Shown here one piece after another: positions 1-11,418 of a DNA stretch of 64,000 nt. The notes beneath the pieces are model-generated. The model was not told the DNA's origin. It was given only the letters and a program-made list of their open reading frames with translations, and made no database searches. The number at the start of each line of letters is the position of its first letter. Position 1 is the stretch's first letter. The translations under genes were made by a program, and so were the position numbers. This DNA is from Shigella phage ESh36. The stretch is from sequence record ON528746; one strand, 5' to 3'.

Positions 1-64
1 AAAGCAAAAACAACCGGCCATTCACACTTTTCGCAGTGGGCATTTTTAAGAATACTTGTTTGGC

Positions 65-277
65 TCATAACCATGTAACCTTTAAACAATATTCTTCTAC
101 GTGTTGTTTACGACCTTTCTTATCAATAAAGGTATATTCAACGAATGTTCCAATATAGTCTTTATCTACATCATGAGGACTATTAATTGGGCATTTAGTA
201 CGGCAAATGCGTTCCCATTGACGAATAATTTCCACTTTGTTTTTAGGATCAAACGGATGCGGGTAATGTACTTTCAT
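65..277 (-). CDS. hypothetical small protein (70 aa)
   Basis: ATG-initiated ORF in the minus-strand early block downstream of the macro-like ORF; no recognisable motif. Confidence 0.4.
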   Translation of the reverse strand: MKVHYPHPFDPKNKVEIIRQWERICRTKCPINSPHDVDKDYIGTFVEYTFIDKKGRKQHVEEYCLKVTWL

Positions 278-728
278 AATCCACCACTATTAAATCAATA
301 TCAGGAGTAAACATGTCGATTAATTTAGAAACCTTATCCCAATCGCCGCCAGCAATACCGCAACCTATGCGTGGAATGTAAATTACTGGTTTAAACAAAA
401 GGGTTTCTGCCTGTAGATTTAATTCTATCATGCAGTTTACTAAAGCACCATAATCAAGATTAGGACCCGGTTCATATTGCGTATACAGGTTATAGCATAT
501 ACCAAATCCTGTAGGATTATGTTTAAAAACAATAGACATATCGCCTAATTTATCACGAGAACCGTACTCGGTAGTGGTTTTATCTATTTCTAAAATTTTG
601 GGATAGGCTCTTGCTAATTGACCTGCTACGCCAGAGCCCATTGTGTGGAAGCAATTGCACCCGTGCGCAATAATATTACCTTGAAGAAATAGGGCGACAA
701 TATCGCCCTTGATATATTTTACAATCAT
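249..728 (-). CDS. macro-domain-like protein (possible ADP-ribose binding/hydrolase)
   Basis: 159 aa; N-terminal GDIV...NIIAHGCNC...MGSGVAGQLARA and C-terminal IPRIGCGIAGGDWDKV resemble the two conserved macro-domain blocks (GDIT...NAAN...GGGV.GAI and FPAIS.G.YG). Assignment by motif pattern only. Confidence 0.5.
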   Translation of the reverse strand: MIVKYIKGDIVALFLQGNIIAHGCNCFHTMGSGVAGQLARAYPKILEIDKTTTEYGSRDKLGDMSIVFKHNPTGFGICYNLYTQYEPGPNLDYGALVNCMIELNLQAETLLFKPVIYIPRIGCGIAGGDWDKVSKLIDMFTPDIDLIVVDYESTLPASV

Positions 729-1072
729 CTAGTACTCAATCCTCGATTATAAGAATCTACTAAACGGTCAACCATTGAATGACAAGCGGCTTTATCTTTC
801 TCCTCCGCAACTGAACATTCTAAGGTATTCCACTTTTTAGCATATCGTTTTAACAATGTATCATTTTTGTATCTGCTTGATTTATCTCTTTCTCCGTCTT
901 TATATGCATATATTAATTTCTGTGCAAATTCAGCTTGGCATGCTTTATTTTTCCCGCAATAATCCGCGGCAGTACGATTTACATACTCTCTAATTTCAGT
1001 ATATGATGTATCTGCTGATGCAGAAGCAGAAAATGAAATTAATCCTATACATAAAACCAAAATTTTAGTCAT
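725..1072 (-). CDS. small secreted protein with N-terminal signal peptide (115 aa); positional counterpart of T4 vs
   Basis: Hydrophobic leader MTKILVLCIGLISFSASASA followed by a Cys-containing polar domain; ATGA-type overlap with neighbours; sits where T4 has vs. Confidence 0.5.
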   Translation of the reverse strand: MTKILVLCIGLISFSASASADTSYTEIREYVNRTAADYCGKNKACQAEFAQKLIYAYKDGERDKSSRYKNDTLLKRYAKKWNTLECSVAEEKDKAACHSMVDRLVDSYNRGLSTR

Positions 1073-1610
1073 TTACTATTTCCAAAAGTTTATTATTTTT
1101 AAGGTAATTAGCCTTTTCTAGGACTTCAGAAGCATATTTAGAACCTGCTTTAACATTCCATCCCGAATTATAAGAGGATATTGCTTTTCTTATATCGCCC
1201 TTATGTATATTTAACCAATAAGAAAGTTCAATGTACGCCCAGGAAGCTGAATTGGACCGTTTATTCAACATTCTTTTTATTTCAGCATCGGTCATATTAT
1301 AACCAAGTTCCTTAACTCTTGCTCGCATAGTTGGCAAATAATTTTGGAACATTCCATAGGCATGATGCTTTGGTTTAGATTTTAAATTAACTCCGGCAGA
1401 GCTTTCTTGCCACAAAATAGCAGCCATTATATGACCCAATCCGCTCTTGTGGATATTTTTGTGTGTTTTATATTTTCCATCCTTAGAAAATTGTTCCCCG
1501 AATTGATATGCGTAACGCATGTTATCGAGTTGGACATTACTGAAAGTATGCTCGGAGCTATGCGCCATCATTGAAATGGCCAATAGACCAGCGAGTAGTG
1601 CTTTTCTCAT
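1065..1610 (-). CDS. SLT-domain lytic transglycosylase-like protein with signal peptide
   Basis: 181 aa; leader MRKALLAGLLAISMMAHS; family-1 lytic transglycosylase motifs WQESS (catalytic Glu), GMFQ and SYNSG. Confidence 0.6.
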   Translation of the reverse strand: MRKALLAGLLAISMMAHSSEHTFSNVQLDNMRYAYQFGEQFSKDGKYKTHKNIHKSGLGHIMAAILWQESSAGVNLKSKPKHHAYGMFQNYLPTMRARVKELGYNMTDAEIKRMLNKRSNSASWAYIELSYWLNIHKGDIRKAISSYNSGWNVKAGSKYASEVLEKANYLKNNKLLEIVND

Positions 1611-1617
1611 GCTTACC

Positions 1618-2079
1618 TCATTGAGTTTTAATTACTGCTTTAGAAGCCTTTCCTGGTAAACGACGACTGTTGATAATTGCCATCCTGCATTGAAGCGACG
1701 GGTCTTTGAACTTCGCATTAGGTTTACAAACTGTAAATCCAAGCCAAAGATTTCCATCTGTAATTTCTAAACGTCCAGGACGGTATTCAACCCCATCAAT
1801 AAAATCCTCGTCAATGTCAGGACGCGGAGGCATACTCAGGAATTCATTAACTTCTAAAACATGGTCTTTTATTTTGTGGAATAATTCAAAAACATATGTC
1901 TCATCAATCTCCCGTTGAATTGCACGATCAAGAAGATGCTGAGAATATTTTAGATGAAACGATGAGACCCCTGCTGCTTTTGATGCCTCACGAATCTCAT
2001 TGTTAATTTGACGAAACTCCGACTCAAAGTGACGACGAAGCTTATTTCGACGGATAAAAACTTCTGTGTTGATAGTCAT
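1618..2079 (-). CDS. regB: RegB site-specific endoribonuclease
   Basis: 153 aa starting MTINTEVFIRRNKLRRHFESEFRQ, matching T4 RegB sequence and length as recalled. Confidence 0.85.
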   Translation of the reverse strand: MTINTEVFIRRNKLRRHFESEFRQINNEIREASKAAGVSSFHLKYSQHLLDRAIQREIDETYVFELFHKIKDHVLEVNEFLSMPPRPDIDEDFIDGVEYRPGRLEITDGNLWLGFTVCKPNAKFKDPSLQCRMAIINSRRLPGKASKAVIKTQ

Positions 2080-2138
2080 GTTATTCTCCTCTTAACTGAT
2101 AGAAAAATTATACCACAGTCAAGAGGAAAAGTAAACAG

Positions 2139-2417
2139 TTATTCTTTAAATCTAATCAATTTATTCATAGACTTTGAAACTTCTGCACGGACCTCATGCA
2201 GGTTTTTAAGCTGTTCAAGACGTTGCTCATAGTAAGCAATTTCATCTTCTTCAAGACAGTCCTGTGAATCTTCTTTAAGATAACGCGCATAGTCCTGGAA
2301 AGCTTTACGGACTACTTCTTGGAAGTCATCAAGACTTTGAATTTTCTTAGGAGCAACAGATACACGACGAGGGGCAGTATAATACTCATAACCAAACCCT
2401 GCGCTTAATTGAGCCAT
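2139..2417 (-). CDS. hypothetical protein (T4 vs.3 position)
   Basis: Track ORF starts at GTG; first ATG ([10 protein letters not shown]) at 2417 gives a TAATG overlap with the upstream gene, so the start was moved. Confidence 0.45.
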
Positions 2418-2683
2418 TAATATTTTTCCTCTGGTTGGAACACAGCACGACAAGCCCACATACTGGCTTCTTTGAGTTTCGTTTTAGCAATAGTTAACTG
2501 ATCGAGGCTTTCAGCATAATTCTTCGCGAATTCACAGTCTTCACAATTATCTAGTGCTTCCCAAAATTCATCGTATAAAGCGTCAAAGATAAGTCCTAAA
2601 CGAACTTCAGCATCTTTGATAGCATTCACTTTACTGATTTTATCGTCAGTATGTGGCTTATAACCTTTAATATCTTCAATCAT
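2417..2683 (-). CDS. hypothetical protein (T4 vs.4 position)
   Basis: Track start is TTG; in-frame ATG at 2683 (MIEDIKGY) is preceded by GAGGAAG Shine-Dalgarno. Confidence 0.45.
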
Positions 2684-2897
2684 ATTTGACTTCCTCACCA
2701 GTACATAAATCATATTCAACTAAACGAATAGGTTCATGAATGCCATATCCTTGAACAGAAATTTCTGTCGTAGGATAAATTCCATCAATATCACCCATGG
2801 TCCATGCTTCATTAAATTGCTGTTCGCCTGAATTACTAAACCACTCGGCGAAAGCATTTAACACATCTTTAGAACCTTCAATAATTATCTTTGCCAT
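2676..2897 (-). CDS. hypothetical protein (73 aa)
   Basis: ATG-initiated ORF tightly packed between neighbours. Confidence 0.5.
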   Translation of the reverse strand: MAKIIIEGSKDVLNAFAEWFSNSGEQQFNEAWTMGDIDGIYPTTEISVQGYGIHEPIRLVEYDLCTGEEVKYD

Positions 2898-3259
2898 TAC
2901 AAGCTCTCAGTAAAGGTACGAGCGATAACGTCGCGCTGCTGTTCCGGAGTCAGAGAGTTAAAGCGAACTGCATAACCGGATACACGGATGGTCAGCTGCG
3001 GATATTTTTCCGGATGCTTAACTGCATCTTCCAGAGTTTCACGACGCAGAACGTTAACGTTCAGGTGCTGACCACCTTCAATTTTAACGGTAGGCTGTGA
3101 TTCAATTTCAATTTCACGGGCATGCAAACCGTAGAAAATTTCTGGGTCTACAAAAGAGTCCTCTTTAAAGGTTTTAGAAACAATAATTCGTGCTTGAATA
3201 CCATCTTCAAAATAAATAGTACCTTTATGTGTGCCTTCAAGAATTTGATATGCTTTCAT
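2897..3259 (-). CDS. autonomous glycyl-radical cofactor (GrcA/YfiD-like; T4 Y06I family)
   Basis: 120 aa; C-terminal ~60 aa [61 protein letters not shown] carries the glycyl-radical motif RVSGY and matches E. coli GrcA as I recall it. Confidence 0.9.
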
Positions 3260-3265
3260 ATAACC

Positions 3266-3595
3266 TCAATTAGAAAATAAATTTATCCAAGATTGTTCTT
3301 TAATTAAAAATGGCTCAGAATCATATGCCATTAAACTTTGTGTGATTAGTCCTTTAAAAGGCCCATCAATAAATTCCATGGTAAAATATGGAATTTTATT
3401 CATTAATCTTGCATTAGGAGCAGTACACAAAACTCTGCATCCTTTGAATACACCTTTTTGTAATTTGTATTGCTTAGGATAAAATTCGCTCAAGACGTTG
3501 TTATTTGCCAAAATTTCAAAATGATTCACCAATTTATTTTTAATAGTTTTTGGTGAAAAATAAAGATATTCGAAAAGTTGCGTGTCTGTCATCAT
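3266..3595 (-). CDS. hypothetical protein (T4 vs.7 position)
   Basis: Start moved to the internal ATG (MMTDTQ) that forms an ATGA overlap with the upstream stop; the track's longer start would overlap the upstream gene by 55 nt. Confidence 0.45.
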   Translation of the reverse strand: MMTDTQLFEYLYFSPKTIKNKLVNHFEILANNNVLSEFYPKQYKLQKGVFKGCRVLCTAPNARLMNKIPYFTMEFIDGPFKGLITQSLMAYDSEPFLIKEQSWINLFSN

Positions 3596-4286: not shown

Positions 4287-4760
4287 TTATTTGAATGATT
4301 TGACGTACTGAATAGAGCCTTTGCTATTCACGAAAGCGATTTTACCATTTTTGTTATACATGGTAGCAGTACGCTGATAACCATAAGTTTGTTTACCAGA
4401 TTGATAACCAACTAATGCGAAATTATCTTCACCCATTTTATTCTGCTTCGCGCGGATACGTTCATGACCATGTGCCATAAGAACCTTAGCGTCGCCAGTT
4501 GCAATGGATCTACGAGTTTTTTCATCTTCAACTGTATTAACAAAGTCGTCAAATGAATCAAATTTAGCGTGAGATTTATTATACAGTTTTCCATCTACTG
4601 CATAATTATATCCCTGTACATCCATCTCAACTTCTGTACCATCATCCAATACAGCAGTGATTTTTTGACCTTTTTTAAATTTCAAAAGATCAGTAAAAGA
4701 TTCAGCGATAATTTGAGAATTAATAGCTGCTTCAGTGATAAATTCTTGATATGTTTTCAT
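4287..4760 (-). CDS. internal-protein-like head protein with capsid targeting sequence
   Basis: 157 aa; N-terminus MKTYQEFITEA is the T4 IP capsid-targeting leader (consensus MKTYQEFIAEA) with a downstream IAE prohead-protease-type site; mature part basic. Confidence 0.6.
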   Translation of the reverse strand: MKTYQEFITEAAINSQIIAESFTDLLKFKKGQKITAVLDDGTEVEMDVQGYNYAVDGKLYNKSHAKFDSFDDFVNTVEDEKTRRSIATGDAKVLMAHGHERIRAKQNKMGEDNFALVGYQSGKQTYGYQRTATMYNKNGKIAFVNSKGSIQYVKSFK

Positions 4761-4769
4761 GTGTTTCCT

Positions 4770-5186
4770 TTAAATGTAAATAGTTTTACCGTAGTATTTA
4801 TACCAGTGTGGCTTCATTAAAATTTTTTCATCGAGTCGTTGTTGACTCAACTTAATAGCTGATTTGCATGGATTATAATCATTTTTCCATTCTGCTGAAA
4901 TATCGCTGATGTCAGGAACTTCAGTATCTTTTATACTGAACCCACGTTTTAAGCATTCCGTTATAATGTCTGATTGACGCTTTCGCAAAAATTCTAACTT
5001 ATCGTAAAAGAACGTAACATGACCAGAACCTAAAATAAACTCGGAAGATATTTTAAAATCTTTAACCCGTTTACCATTTGCCACATGTTTACGAACTATA
5101 CCAAAAACACGTGGCAATTCACGGTATTCTGCGATTAAATGTTGATCAGCAAGTTCAGATACTAAAGTCAAATTAATACGAGTCAT
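4770..5186 (-). CDS. denV: endonuclease V (pyrimidine-dimer DNA glycosylase)
   Basis: 138 aa, [17 protein letters not shown]...WYKYYGK matches T4 DenV in sequence and length. Confidence 0.9.
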
Positions 5187-5201
5187 TTTATCCCTCCAAG
5201 T

Positions 5202-5776
<575 letters not shown>

Positions 5777-6232
5777 TTAAAAGAGGCTGTTCATTATTCG
5801 GTAAAGTGAAGGACCCATCACATATTGCCACTGAGTGCGAGGAATAAGAGCAAAAGCATCCATCTCTGGAATCATAACTCCATCTTTATTTTCAAAATAG
5901 GACTCGCAATGGCAATTTCTAAACATCTCATGCTCTACCGGAATCGTATAATAAAATAACTGTAAGTCTTTATTACTGGAATATTTAAATACACCTAGGT
6001 CTTCTAGAAGGTCTGGATTATAATTGCTAAAGCCAGTCTCTTCTAAACATTCTCTTTTTGCAGCTTCCAGTGCGCTTAAGTCAGAACTTTCTACACGGCC
6101 CTTTGGAATATCCCAGCGATGTGCCATCATTCCAGGCTTACGAGAACCAGTAACCCGACCCATAAATAAATCTTTATCTTCTGTCATAAAGATAATACCA
6201 GCTGATAATGTTTTCATTTTAATTTCCTGCAT
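5777..6232 (-). CDS. nudE: Nudix hydrolase
   Basis: 151 aa with Nudix box GRVESSDLSALEAAKRECLEETGF; directly upstream of e on the minus strand as in T4. A second in-frame Met (MKTLSAG) with better SD spacing is an alternative start. Confidence 0.8.
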   Translation of the reverse strand: MQEIKMKTLSAGIIFMTEDKDLFMGRVTGSRKPGMMAHRWDIPKGRVESSDLSALEAAKRECLEETGFSNYNPDLLEDLGVFKYSSNKDLQLFYYTIPVEHEMFRNCHCESYFENKDGVMIPEMDAFALIPRTQWQYVMGPSLYRIMNSLF

Positions 6233-10586: not shown

Positions 10587-10662
10587 TGGTCGAGGCAGTA
10601 GGGATCGAACCTACGACCCAGGACTTAGAAGGTCCTTGCTCTTCCTTCTGAGCTATGCCTCG
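10587..10662 (-). tRNA. tRNA-Arg (anticodon UCU)
   Basis: Manual fold of reverse complement: acceptor CGAGGCA/TGCCTCG, D-arm GCTC..GAGC, anticodon loop CUUCUAA, T-arm GTAGG-TTCGATC-CCTAC, CCA encoded. Confidence 0.8.
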
Positions 10663-10666
10663 TATT

Positions 10667-10741
10667 TGGCGGACGTGATAGGATTCGAACCTATAACCAA
10701 TCGCTTAACAGGCGATCGCTCTGCCATTGAGCTACACATCC
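10667..10741 (-). tRNA. tRNA-Asn (anticodon GUU)
   Basis: Acceptor GGATGTG/CACGTCC, perfect anticodon stem ATCGC/GCGAT, loop CUGUUAA, T-loop TTCGAAT, CCA encoded. Confidence 0.75.
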
Positions 10742-10745
10742 AAAT

Positions 10746-10832
10746 TGGTGGGGAGTGATGGAGTCGAACCACCCGAGTCGCAATGACAATGAATTTACAG
10801 TCCACACCGCTACCTCTACGGGATAACTCCCC
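10746..10832 (-). tRNA. tRNA-Tyr (anticodon GUA), long variable arm
   Basis: Acceptor GGGGAGT/ACTCCCC, anticodon loop CUGUAAA, long variable arm, T-arm GGTGG-TTCGACT-CCATC, CCA encoded; D-arm pairing irregular. Confidence 0.6.
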
Positions 10833-10845
10833 TTAATTCTTAATT

Positions 10846-10920
10846 TGGTGGCCCTGGGTGGAATTGAACCACCATCTGGCGATTATGAGTCGCTTGCTTG
10901 AACCTTCCAGCTACAGGGCC
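10846..10920 (-). tRNA. tRNA-Ile (anticodon CAU; formally Met-type anticodon, as for the T4 AUA-reading tRNA-Ile)
   Basis: Acceptor GGCCCTG/CAGGGCC, anticodon loop CUCAUAA, T-arm GGTGG-TTCAATT-CCACC, CCA encoded. Confidence 0.7.
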
Positions 10921-10921
10921 T

Positions 10922-10997
10922 TGGTGCTGATTGACGGAATCGAACCGCCGACCTTCTCATTACAAGTGAGTTGCTCTACCTACTGAGCTAAATCAGC
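10922..10997 (-). tRNA. tRNA-Thr (anticodon UGU)
   Basis: Acceptor GCTGATT/AATCAGC, D-arm AGCTCAGTAGGTAGAGC, anticodon loop CUUGUAA, T-loop TTCGATT, CCA encoded. Confidence 0.8.
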
Positions 10998-11002
10998 AAA
11001 AC

Positions 11003-11092
11003 TGGCGGAGGCGATAGGATTTGAACCTATGAGTCGCCGGAGCGACTGCCGGTTTTCAAGACCGGTGCATTAAACCACTCTGCCACGCCTCC
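11003..11092 (-). tRNA. tRNA-Ser (anticodon UGA)
   Basis: Reverse complement GGAGGCGTGGCAGAGTGG...CTTGAAA...TTCAAATCCTATCGCCTCCGCCA; type II tRNA with long variable arm. Confidence 0.85.
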
Positions 11093-11094
11093 AG

Positions 11095-11168
11095 TCTCCA
11101 TACAAGGATTTGAACCTTGGACCTCCTGATCCCAAATCAGGCGCTCTACCAAACTGAGCTACACGGAG
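11095..11168 (-). tRNA. tRNA-Pro (anticodon UGG)
   Basis: Acceptor CTCCGTG/TATGGAG, D-arm GCTCAGTTTGGTAGAGC, anticodon loop UUUGGGA, T-loop TTCAAAT; CCA not encoded (abuts tRNA-Ser). Confidence 0.8.
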
Positions 11169-11178
11169 TAAATTAAAT

Positions 11179-11252
<74 letters not shown>

Positions 11253-11257
11253 AAATT

Positions 11258-11344
11258 TGGTGCGAGAAGTGGGACTCGAACCCACAAGGAAATCATTCCG
11301 CAGCATTTTAAGTGCTGTGCCTTTACCAATTTGACCATTCTCGC
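11258..11344 (-). tRNA. tRNA-Leu (anticodon UAA)
   Basis: Reverse complement GCGAGAATGGTCAAATTGGTAAAGGCACAGCACTTAAAATGCTG...GGTTCGAGTCCCACTTCTCGCACCA; type II. Confidence 0.85.
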
Positions 11345-11345
11345 G

Positions 11346-11418
11346 CTGGGAATAAAGGACTCGAACCTTTGCATCTAGCAGTCAAAGTGCTATGCCTTAC
11401 CAACTTGGCTAATTCCCA
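11346..11418 (-). tRNA. tRNA-Gln (anticodon UUG)
   Basis: Reverse complement TGGGAATTAGCCAAGTTGGTAAGGCATAGCACTTTGACTGC...GGTTCGAGTCCTTTATTCCCA; CCA not encoded. Confidence 0.8.

Follow-up and report, generated by a model that had tools for sequence, protein, structure and literature searches.

Macrodomains that act against DarT

Gene tk.4 of bacteriophage T4 was recently tied to resistance against the DarTG2 system. In a preprint of November 2025, a T4 transposon library was screened by HIDEN-SEQ on E. coli expressing DarTG2, and tk.4 was the sole significant gene, conditionally essential on the DarTG2 host; a clean tk.4 deletion rendered T4 sensitive to DarTG2, and the gene was renamed adfM, for anti-DarT factor macrodomain (bioRxiv 10.1101/2025.11.20.689424). 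Consistent with this phenotype, T2 and T4 without adfN/adfA stay DarTG2-resistant (PMC11825919). GenBank labels T4 tk.4 'phosphatase; contains A1pp phosphatase motif', newer records use 'macro domain-containing protein', and a table of 2006 already listed tk.4 orthologues as matching A1pp (PMC1524935). Here we analyse the open reading frame (ORF) that we assign as tk.4 in a 64,000-nucleotide stretch of DNA from Shigella phage ESh36 (sequence record ON528746), referred to below as the window.

A second phage macrodomain, gp104 of PhiKZ, was independently named AdfM (Cell Rep 2026) and strips DarT2-made ADP-ribose from a TNTC oligonucleotide in vitro (PMC13309987); like Tk.4, this phage product is a stand-alone macrodomain and counters DarTG2. 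Among bacterial proteins, SCO6735 of Streptomyces coelicolor clears DNA of the ADP-ribose that DarT links to thymidine, and it shields both E. coli and Streptomyces against the toxin. In its structure Gln85 takes the place of the Lys, the Q85A variant is inactive, and a lysine-independent, water-mediated mechanism has been proposed by its authors (PMC9411070). SCO6735 is also active on uracil-linked ADP-ribose in RNA (PMC13036486).

A tk.4 orthologue in the window

The ORF occupies positions 249..728 of the minus strand and runs from ATG to stop, encoding 159 amino acids (aa). The N-terminus of the product is MIVKYIKGDIVALFLQGNIIAHGCNCFHTMGSGVAGQ and an internal block reads IPRIGCGIAGGDWDKV; both match the motifs quoted in a first-pass annotation of this DNA, which had described a macro-domain-like protein of 159 aa in the early region. 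The product shares 58% aa identity with T4 Tk.4 (NP_049723.1) over 155 aa in a gapless alignment (E=1e-70), and both belong to PHROG 335, a group labelled 'phosphatase'. The two proteins thus align end to end without gaps, come from the same locus and are of comparable length (155 vs 159 aa). Because it is flanked by tk.3 and vs as in T4, the ORF is, on sequence and gene order, the orthologue of T4 tk.4.

Membership of the macrodomain superfamily

Residues 22-136 of the window protein match the Pfam family Macro (PF01661) with 33.1 bits against a gathering cut-off of 22 (E=5.8e-8), covering profile positions 2-117 of 118. Used as a single sequence, Tk.4 matched the solved macrodomains BT1257 (E=1.6e-10), Poa1p (1.5e-9), SCO6735 (8.5e-8), Mycobacterium tuberculosis DarG (4.8e-5) and human TARG1 (0.01); with a 67-sequence family profile the values were 2.6e-19 for BT1257, 9.4e-17 for TARG1, 1.3e-15 for SCO6735, 2e-14 for Poa1p and 4.7e-12 for DarG. 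Every profile match with E<1e-6 was ALC1/TARG1-like, and the MacroD-type domains of coronaviruses and alphaviruses reached just 0.003-0.007.

An AlphaFold2 model of Tk.4, computed from an alignment of 67 homologues, had a mean predicted local distance difference test score (pLDDT) of 93.5 and a predicted template modelling score (pTM) of 0.88. In this model strands and helices alternate, the macrodomain occupies residues 1-152, and the arrangement is the three-layer alpha/beta/alpha macro fold. When the model was compared with the PDB by Foldseek, ranks 1-18 were taken by TARG1, Poa1p, BT1257 and DarG types, the top matches having probability 1.00 and template modelling (TM) scores of 0.7-0.84 (E=2.9e-10 for TARG1 and 9.1e-10 for Poa1p). 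The best 50 PDB matches were all macrodomains or designs on a macrodomain-like scaffold, with probability 1.00.

Judged by sequence profiles and the predicted fold, window Tk.4 belongs to the macrodomain superfamily, with a resemblance well beyond chance, and within it to the ALC1/TARG1-like class (TARG1, DarG, SCO6735, Poa1p, ALC1) and not to the MacroD, PARG or macroH2A types. The first-pass description of the product as macro-domain-like is therefore borne out by a Pfam score above threshold, the predicted fold and macrodomains throughout the Foldseek matches. It had also proposed a structure prediction, in which an unrelated fold would speak against the assignment; that prediction was run, and an unrelated fold is set aside because the AlphaFold2 model and its Foldseek matches are macrodomains.

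A glutamine in place of the catalytic lysine

Both of the glycine-rich loops that line the ADP-ribose diphosphate site of macrodomains are present in the window protein (M30-G31-S32-G33 and G122-C-G124-I-A-G127-G128), and G31, G33 and G122 are invariant in all 8 aligned macrodomains. Residues invariant within the family, as defined by the 67-sequence alignment, are H22, G23, N25, C26, G33, A35, D49, N80, Y82, Q84, P119, G122, G124 and W130; N25 corresponds to the Asn that was mutated (N23A) in PhiKZ AdfM (PMC13309987). In four independent alignments Q84 falls opposite TARG1 K84 and DarG K80, the catalytic lysines of those two proteins. This glutamine is also invariant in the 67-sequence alignment, and the motif Y[TS]Q occurs in 120/120 homologues among the matches listed. 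On these alignments the active site of Tk.4 is not DarG-like; it is Gln-type, as in SCO6735 and BT1257. Because the catalytic Lys is replaced by Gln (Q84), a Lys-to-Ala catalytic-dead control is not applicable to Tk.4, for which Q84A or N25A would serve instead.

Comparison with bacterial, phage and eukaryotic macrodomains

SCO6735 (PDB 5E3B) and BT1257 (PDB 2AFC/2FG1), the latter the best single-sequence and profile match of Tk.4, are stand-alone proteins like Tk.4, with Gln at the catalytic-Lys position. They also share with it a His-x-Cys-Asn motif and a PRIGCG-x-AGG-x-W loop, the second glycine-rich loop reading GCGLAGG in SCO6735 and GCGIAGG in window Tk.4. Alignment of the Tk.4 family with hhalign gave a score of 116 and 26% identity for SCO6735/BT1257, against 102 and 19% for the DarG type, which places the family slightly nearer the former by this measure. 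Identity to the two bacterial proteins is about 26-27%, and there are differences: Tk.4 has YTQ and not IGQ, MGSG and not WGKG in loop 1, and Gly23 in place of Val/Ile25, and it is a phage and not a bacterial gene. Of the features of the SCO6735 type, the Gln, the equivalents of His24 and Asn27 and the GCG-L/I-AGG loop are present in Tk.4, whereas Val/Ile25 and the extended Lys-bearing loop are absent. As aligned, Tk.4 thus resembles the SCO6735 type where the catalytic residues lie but lacks two features that the authors of SCO6735 hold characteristic.

DarG (Thermus aquaticus, PDB 5M31; M. tuberculosis, PDB 5M3I) belongs to the same macrodomain class and, by the genetics of the T4 orthologue, addresses the same target pathway, in which the thymidine ADP-ribosylation made by DarT2 is reversed. 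It is the best NCBIfam and PADLOC match of Tk.4, for the macrodomain part only. Membership of the DarG family (NF048014 equivalog) was rejected: the match reached 27.8 bits where 250 are required, over model positions 2-142 of 338, and the protein, at 159 aa, lacks the C-terminal DarT-binding domain, the catalytic Lys (K80) and a neighbouring darT gene. The motifs differ as well, with DarG FPTK replaced by LYTQ in Tk.4, PPLG by PRIG and NGG by AGG.

PhiKZ gp104, in contrast to Tk.4, is DarG-type (E=9.4e-25 to M. tuberculosis DarG) and retains the FPTK lysine. Orthology between Tk.4 and PhiKZ AdfM was considered and rejected, the similarity being marginal (BLASTP E=0.001 over 33 residues). Since the PhiKZ protein is Lys-type and DarG-like and Tk.4 is Gln-type, the two proteins called AdfM represent different lineages of the ALC1/TARG1-like class. 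The name now covers two macrodomains that are not orthologous and differ in mechanism, a Lys-type one in PhiKZ and a Gln-type one in T-even phages, which bears on the origin of phage anti-DarT genes.

Human TARG1 (OARD1; PDB 4J5R/4J5S) shares the Y[IV]KGD N-terminal strand and the PRIGCG loop with Tk.4, and its K84/D125 dyad is replaced by Q84/A126. Yeast Poa1p (PDB 6LFQ-6LFU), a small-molecule phosphatase about 24% identical to Tk.4, shares the same strand and the H-x-CNC motif. Poa1p H23 and S30, which are mutated in PDB entries, align with Tk.4 H22 and T29; the F152 region is only weakly aligned, in a second stretch with E=6.3.

Because the Tk.4 family is Gln-type, T-even phages may have recruited a SCO6735-like 'genome guardian' macrodomain and not an orphaned DarG, PhiKZ having recruited a true DarG type; we consider this more likely than the functional specialization of tk.4 alleles discussed below. 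In the bacterium Pelagimonas phthalicica, a chromosomal homologue with 40% identity stands alone among housekeeping genes with no darT nearby, and this single locus thus lends no weight to an origin as an 'orphan antitoxin'.

Proposed mechanism and alternative explanations

We propose that Tk.4 acts as a stand-alone ALC1/TARG1-like macrodomain that would be expressed from the tk-vs-regB cluster early in infection. In this scheme, host DarT2 would attach ADP-ribose to thymidine of single-stranded phage DNA, and Tk.4 would bind the ADP-ribose and hydrolyse the base-ribose bond, restoring replicable DNA. Catalysis would proceed via Q84, with H22 and N25 nearby, and would be lysine-independent and probably water- or substrate-assisted, as in SCO6735. 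Taking the T4 genetics and the active-site comparison together, we consider it likely that Tk.4 removes DarT2-made thymidine ADP-ribose from single-stranded phage DNA, and so provides a DarTG2 counter-defence with a Gln-dependent active site. That T4 Tk.4 removes ADP-ribose from DNA enzymatically, and that the window allele has the same activity, is what we infer from these comparisons. The mechanistic precedent is SCO6735 (PMC9411070), and PhiKZ gp104, a second phage macrodomain, removes DarT2-made ADP-ribose from DNA in vitro (PMC13309987).

Several observations weigh against this proposal. For T4 Tk.4, enzymatic removal of ADP-ribose only 'seems likely' according to the preprint that described its phenotype (bioRxiv 10.1101/2025.11.20.689424), and the T4 and T2 phages tested against DarTG2 carry another allele, 58% identical to window Tk.4. 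The mobile loop that follows Q84 is 6-7 residues shorter in Tk.4 than in SCO6735 and contains no Lys. The K89 that is thereby absent matters in SCO6735, where its mutation considerably lowered activity on DNA, and a second loop Lys is credited with DNA binding (PMC9411070). Tk.4 also has Gly23 where SCO6735 has Val25, the proposed positioner of the catalytic water, and in sequence it is no less similar to the ADP-ribose-1''-phosphatase Poa1p than to SCO6735. Finally, SCO6735 continues to inhibit DarT by binding when it is catalytically dead (PMC9411070), so hydrolysis need not be the sole mode of action of Tk.4.

The last of these points leads to a different explanation, that Tk.4 neutralizes DarT2 mainly through stoichiometric binding of the toxin and not by erasing the mark, to which we assign a low probability. 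In vitro, DarT is inhibited by each of three dead macrodomain variants (SCO6735 Q85A, DarG K80A and TARG1 K84A), with the strongest effect for SCO6735 (PMC9411070), and the differences between the two tk.4 alleles lie mostly outside the active-site motifs, as would be expected of a surface co-evolving with a partner. However, Tk.4 does not have the C-terminal DarT-binding domain of DarG, PhiKZ AdfM acts enzymatically (PMC13309987), and even distant homologues, from phages and bacteria alike, keep every catalytic-site residue, a pattern that points to selection on catalysis.

About equally improbable, in our estimation, is that Tk.4 is a small-molecule hydrolase, either an ADP-ribose-1''-phosphate phosphatase or an O-acetyl-ADP-ribose deacetylase, with the DarTG2 phenotype a side activity; the old 'phosphatase'/A1pp annotation would imply such a function. 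Poa1p is among the best matches in both sequence and fold, with the alignment of its H23 and S30 to H22 and T29, and GenBank and PHROG use the label 'phosphatase'; but this label reflects transfer of a domain name and not an assay. Moreover, the sole recorded phenotype is DarTG2-specific, and no source of ADP-ribose-1''-phosphate in T4 infection was identified in this analysis.

That Tk.4 reverses protein ADP-ribosylation, whether of the marks made by phage Alt, ModA and ModB or of those made by a host ADP-ribosyltransferase directed at proteins, appears very unlikely, even though T4-type phages encode three ADP-ribosyltransferases and TARG1 and SCO6735 also strip Glu/Asp-linked mono-ADP-ribose from proteins. 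Alt, ModA and ModB target arginine, and arginine-linked ADP-ribose is reversed by ARH/DraG-type enzymes and is not known to be reversed by ALC1-like macrodomains. In the text of the HIDEN-SEQ preprint examined, conditional essentiality on the DarTG2 host is all that is reported for tk.4 (bioRxiv 10.1101/2025.11.20.689424). In the window, no ADP-ribosyltransferase gene adjoins tk.4.

The anti-Thoeris proteins known so far act as sponges and have a different fold. Degradation by Tk.4 of immune signals derived from ADP-ribose, whether Thoeris gcADPR/His-ADPR or further TIR products, is the least credible of the explanations considered, as it derives from a general proposal for phage macro domains (PMC9503650) alone, whereas the best family matches are DNA- or protein-ADP-ribose hydrolases and the literature examined gives no direct evidence for it. 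None of these four alternatives has direct support.

CmdTAC, which acts by mRNA ADP-ribosylation, was also considered as a target of Tk.4 and was dropped: the CmdTAC paper makes no mention of tk.4, and 'macrodomain' occurs there only in the titles of its reference list.

These results divide what the first-pass annotation had suggested about function. Its proposal that the protein reverses ADP-ribosylation, with a test of rescue from DarT, agrees with the genetics of T4 tk.4, obtained with the T4-type allele that is 58% identical; its connection to Alt, ModA and ModB, and its alternative of a signalling nucleotide degraded in Thoeris-type defence, find no support. The idea, DarT test included, is right but already in the literature, and the A1pp/macro annotation is about 20 years old. 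A real anti-defence gene was thus recognizable at first pass from raw sequence, but both the gene (tk.4/adfM) and its DarTG2 role had been published. The feature is already known and annotated, and the points that remain are modest, namely a divergent allele and Gln-type chemistry.

A Nudix hydrolase ORF lies at 5777-6232 on the same (minus) strand, about 5 kb from tk.4, at the nudE/e.1 position. Since T4 NudE hydrolyses ADP-ribose, it is possible, speculatively, that the Nudix product disposes of ADP-ribose freed by Tk.4.

Two alleles of tk.4 among T4-like phages

Turning to variation at the locus, a MAFFT alignment with T4 shows that the flanks of the divergent block (Table 1) are highly conserved, with 97-100% nucleotide (nt) identity for vs/vs.1/regB on the right and 87-97% for tk.3 on the left. 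Within the coding sequence (CDS) itself, the window-type and T4-type alleles are nearly identical over the first ~78 nt. By megablast at >=90% nt identity, the window-type allele was found in ~280 phage records and the T4-type allele in ~224, and a third group was seen at about 73-78%. As compared here, the dimorphism of tk.4 is cassette-like within otherwise near-identical genomes. Roughly half of sequenced T4-like phages carry the window-type allele, and the published phenotype rests on one allele, the T4-type.

All family-invariant residues are present in both alleles. The second glycine-rich loop has the family consensus GCGIAGG in the window allele versus an atypical GAGIGKG in T4 and T2. 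T2 Tk.4 is 100% identical to T4 Tk.4, and the DarTG2 resistance of T2 is therefore uninformative on the window allele. For the anti-DarTG2 function of the window allele we infer from the T4 allele, on grounds that are good: synteny is conserved and the family-invariant residues are kept.

Possibly, the two alleles are functionally distinct counter-defence variants that coexist by arms-race balancing selection, and not products of neutral mosaicism; we regard this as unlikely. Each allele may, for example, be tuned to different DarT2 variants or ADP-ribosylated bases (thymine in DNA versus uracil in RNA), or one may have arisen as an escape from a host factor that recognizes the other.

Product names in the T2 record AP018813 were evidently mis-transferred across positions 52000-66000. 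Small early ORFs in this record are named 'tail sheath monomer', 'major capsid protein' and 'terminase small subunit', and the ORF at the DUF7412 position is named 'valyl tRNA synthetase modifier'. In a 2026 preprint, T2 tk.4 is named 'putative thymidine kinase'.

Organization of the tk.4 locus

Over its first 3 kb, the window shares 99.9% identity with Shigella phage ESh16 and 98-99% with many Tequatrovirus genomes, and by this similarity it is Tequatrovirus DNA. Pfam identifies the neighbours of tk.4 as DUF7202 (tk.3), SLT (vs.1) and REGB_T4 (regB). In annotated relatives and in T4, tk.4 has tk.3 on one side and vs on the other, with vs.1 (SLT) and regB beyond vs, and the neighbours of tk.4 in the window agree with the T4 and Ec_MI-02 annotation of this Tevenvirinae cluster (tk - tk.1-4 - vs - vs.1 - regB). 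The cluster would, as in T4, be expressed early in infection, and the first-pass placement of the gene in the early region fits its position in the tk-vs-regB cluster. In the window darT does not adjoin tk.4, the neighbours being tk.3 (DUF7202) and vs.

Table 1. Coordinates of tk.4 and of its sequence features in the window
Feature	Position	Strand	Observation and basis
tk.4 / adfM CDS	249..728	-	One macrodomain, no additional domain; ORF, Pfam, AlphaFold2, Foldseek, synteny
H-G-C-N-C, codons 22-26	651..665	-	H22/N25 correspond to SCO6735 H24/N27, H22 to Poa1p H23; cross-family alignment
M-G-S-G-V-A-G, codons 30-36	621..641	-	First glycine-rich, phosphate-binding loop
N-L-Y-T-Q, codons 80-84	477..491	-	Q84 at the catalytic-Lys position (TARG1 K84 / DarG K80) and at SCO6735 Gln85
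P-R-I-G-C-G-I-A-G-G-D-W, codons 119-130	339..374	-	Second glycine-rich loop; A126 at the position of TARG1 catalytic D125
Divergent allele block	240..650		48-75% nt identity to T4; sliding identity, MAFFT alignment
ATGA, overlap of vs stop and tk.4 start	725..728	-	ORF coordinates 725..1072 (vs) and 249..728; sequence read directly
Overlap of tk.4 3' end and tk.3 start, 29 nt	249..277	-	tk.3 = 65..277, DUF7202

The ATGA shared by vs and tk.4 suggests translational coupling within one leftward operon. As its start overlaps the vs stop and its 3' end overlaps tk.3 by 29 nt, tk.4 would lie within a tightly packed transcription unit of this kind. In T4, the overlap of tk.4 and tk.3 is 4 nt only, against 29 nt in ESh36, and Tk.4 is 4 aa shorter at its C-terminus (155 versus 159 aa).

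A scan of window positions 1..3500 for sigma-70-like promoters returned 10 sites versus 12.3 expected and was uninformative; terminator-like sites in the same interval numbered 5 against 2.1 expected. The one at 691-709 was dropped as a terminator, being inside the tk.4 CDS and conserved in T4. It is a hairpin with a perfect 8-bp stem, found on both strands (AGGGCGATATTGTCGCCCT; codons 7-13 of tk.4), with a T-rich stretch following on the coding strand, and is kept in the T4 allele too; it may represent a structural element of the mRNA or have arisen by chance.

Other features of the window

Between vs.8 and the lysozyme gene e (4287-5740, minus strand), gene content is unlike that of T4. A DUF7412 ORF (4287-4760) is followed by denV (4770-5186) and then directly by e (5246-5740), and ipII/ipIII, present at this place in T4, are absent from 4287-5740. 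Further on, at 10587-11418 on the minus strand, lies a cluster of 10 tRNA genes (Arg, Asn, Tyr, Met/Ile(cat), Thr, Ser, Pro, Gly, Leu and Gln), 9 of which reach the Rfam gathering score. T4 has eight tRNA genes, and the Asn(gtt) and Tyr(gta) tRNAs of the window appear to be extra relative to T4.

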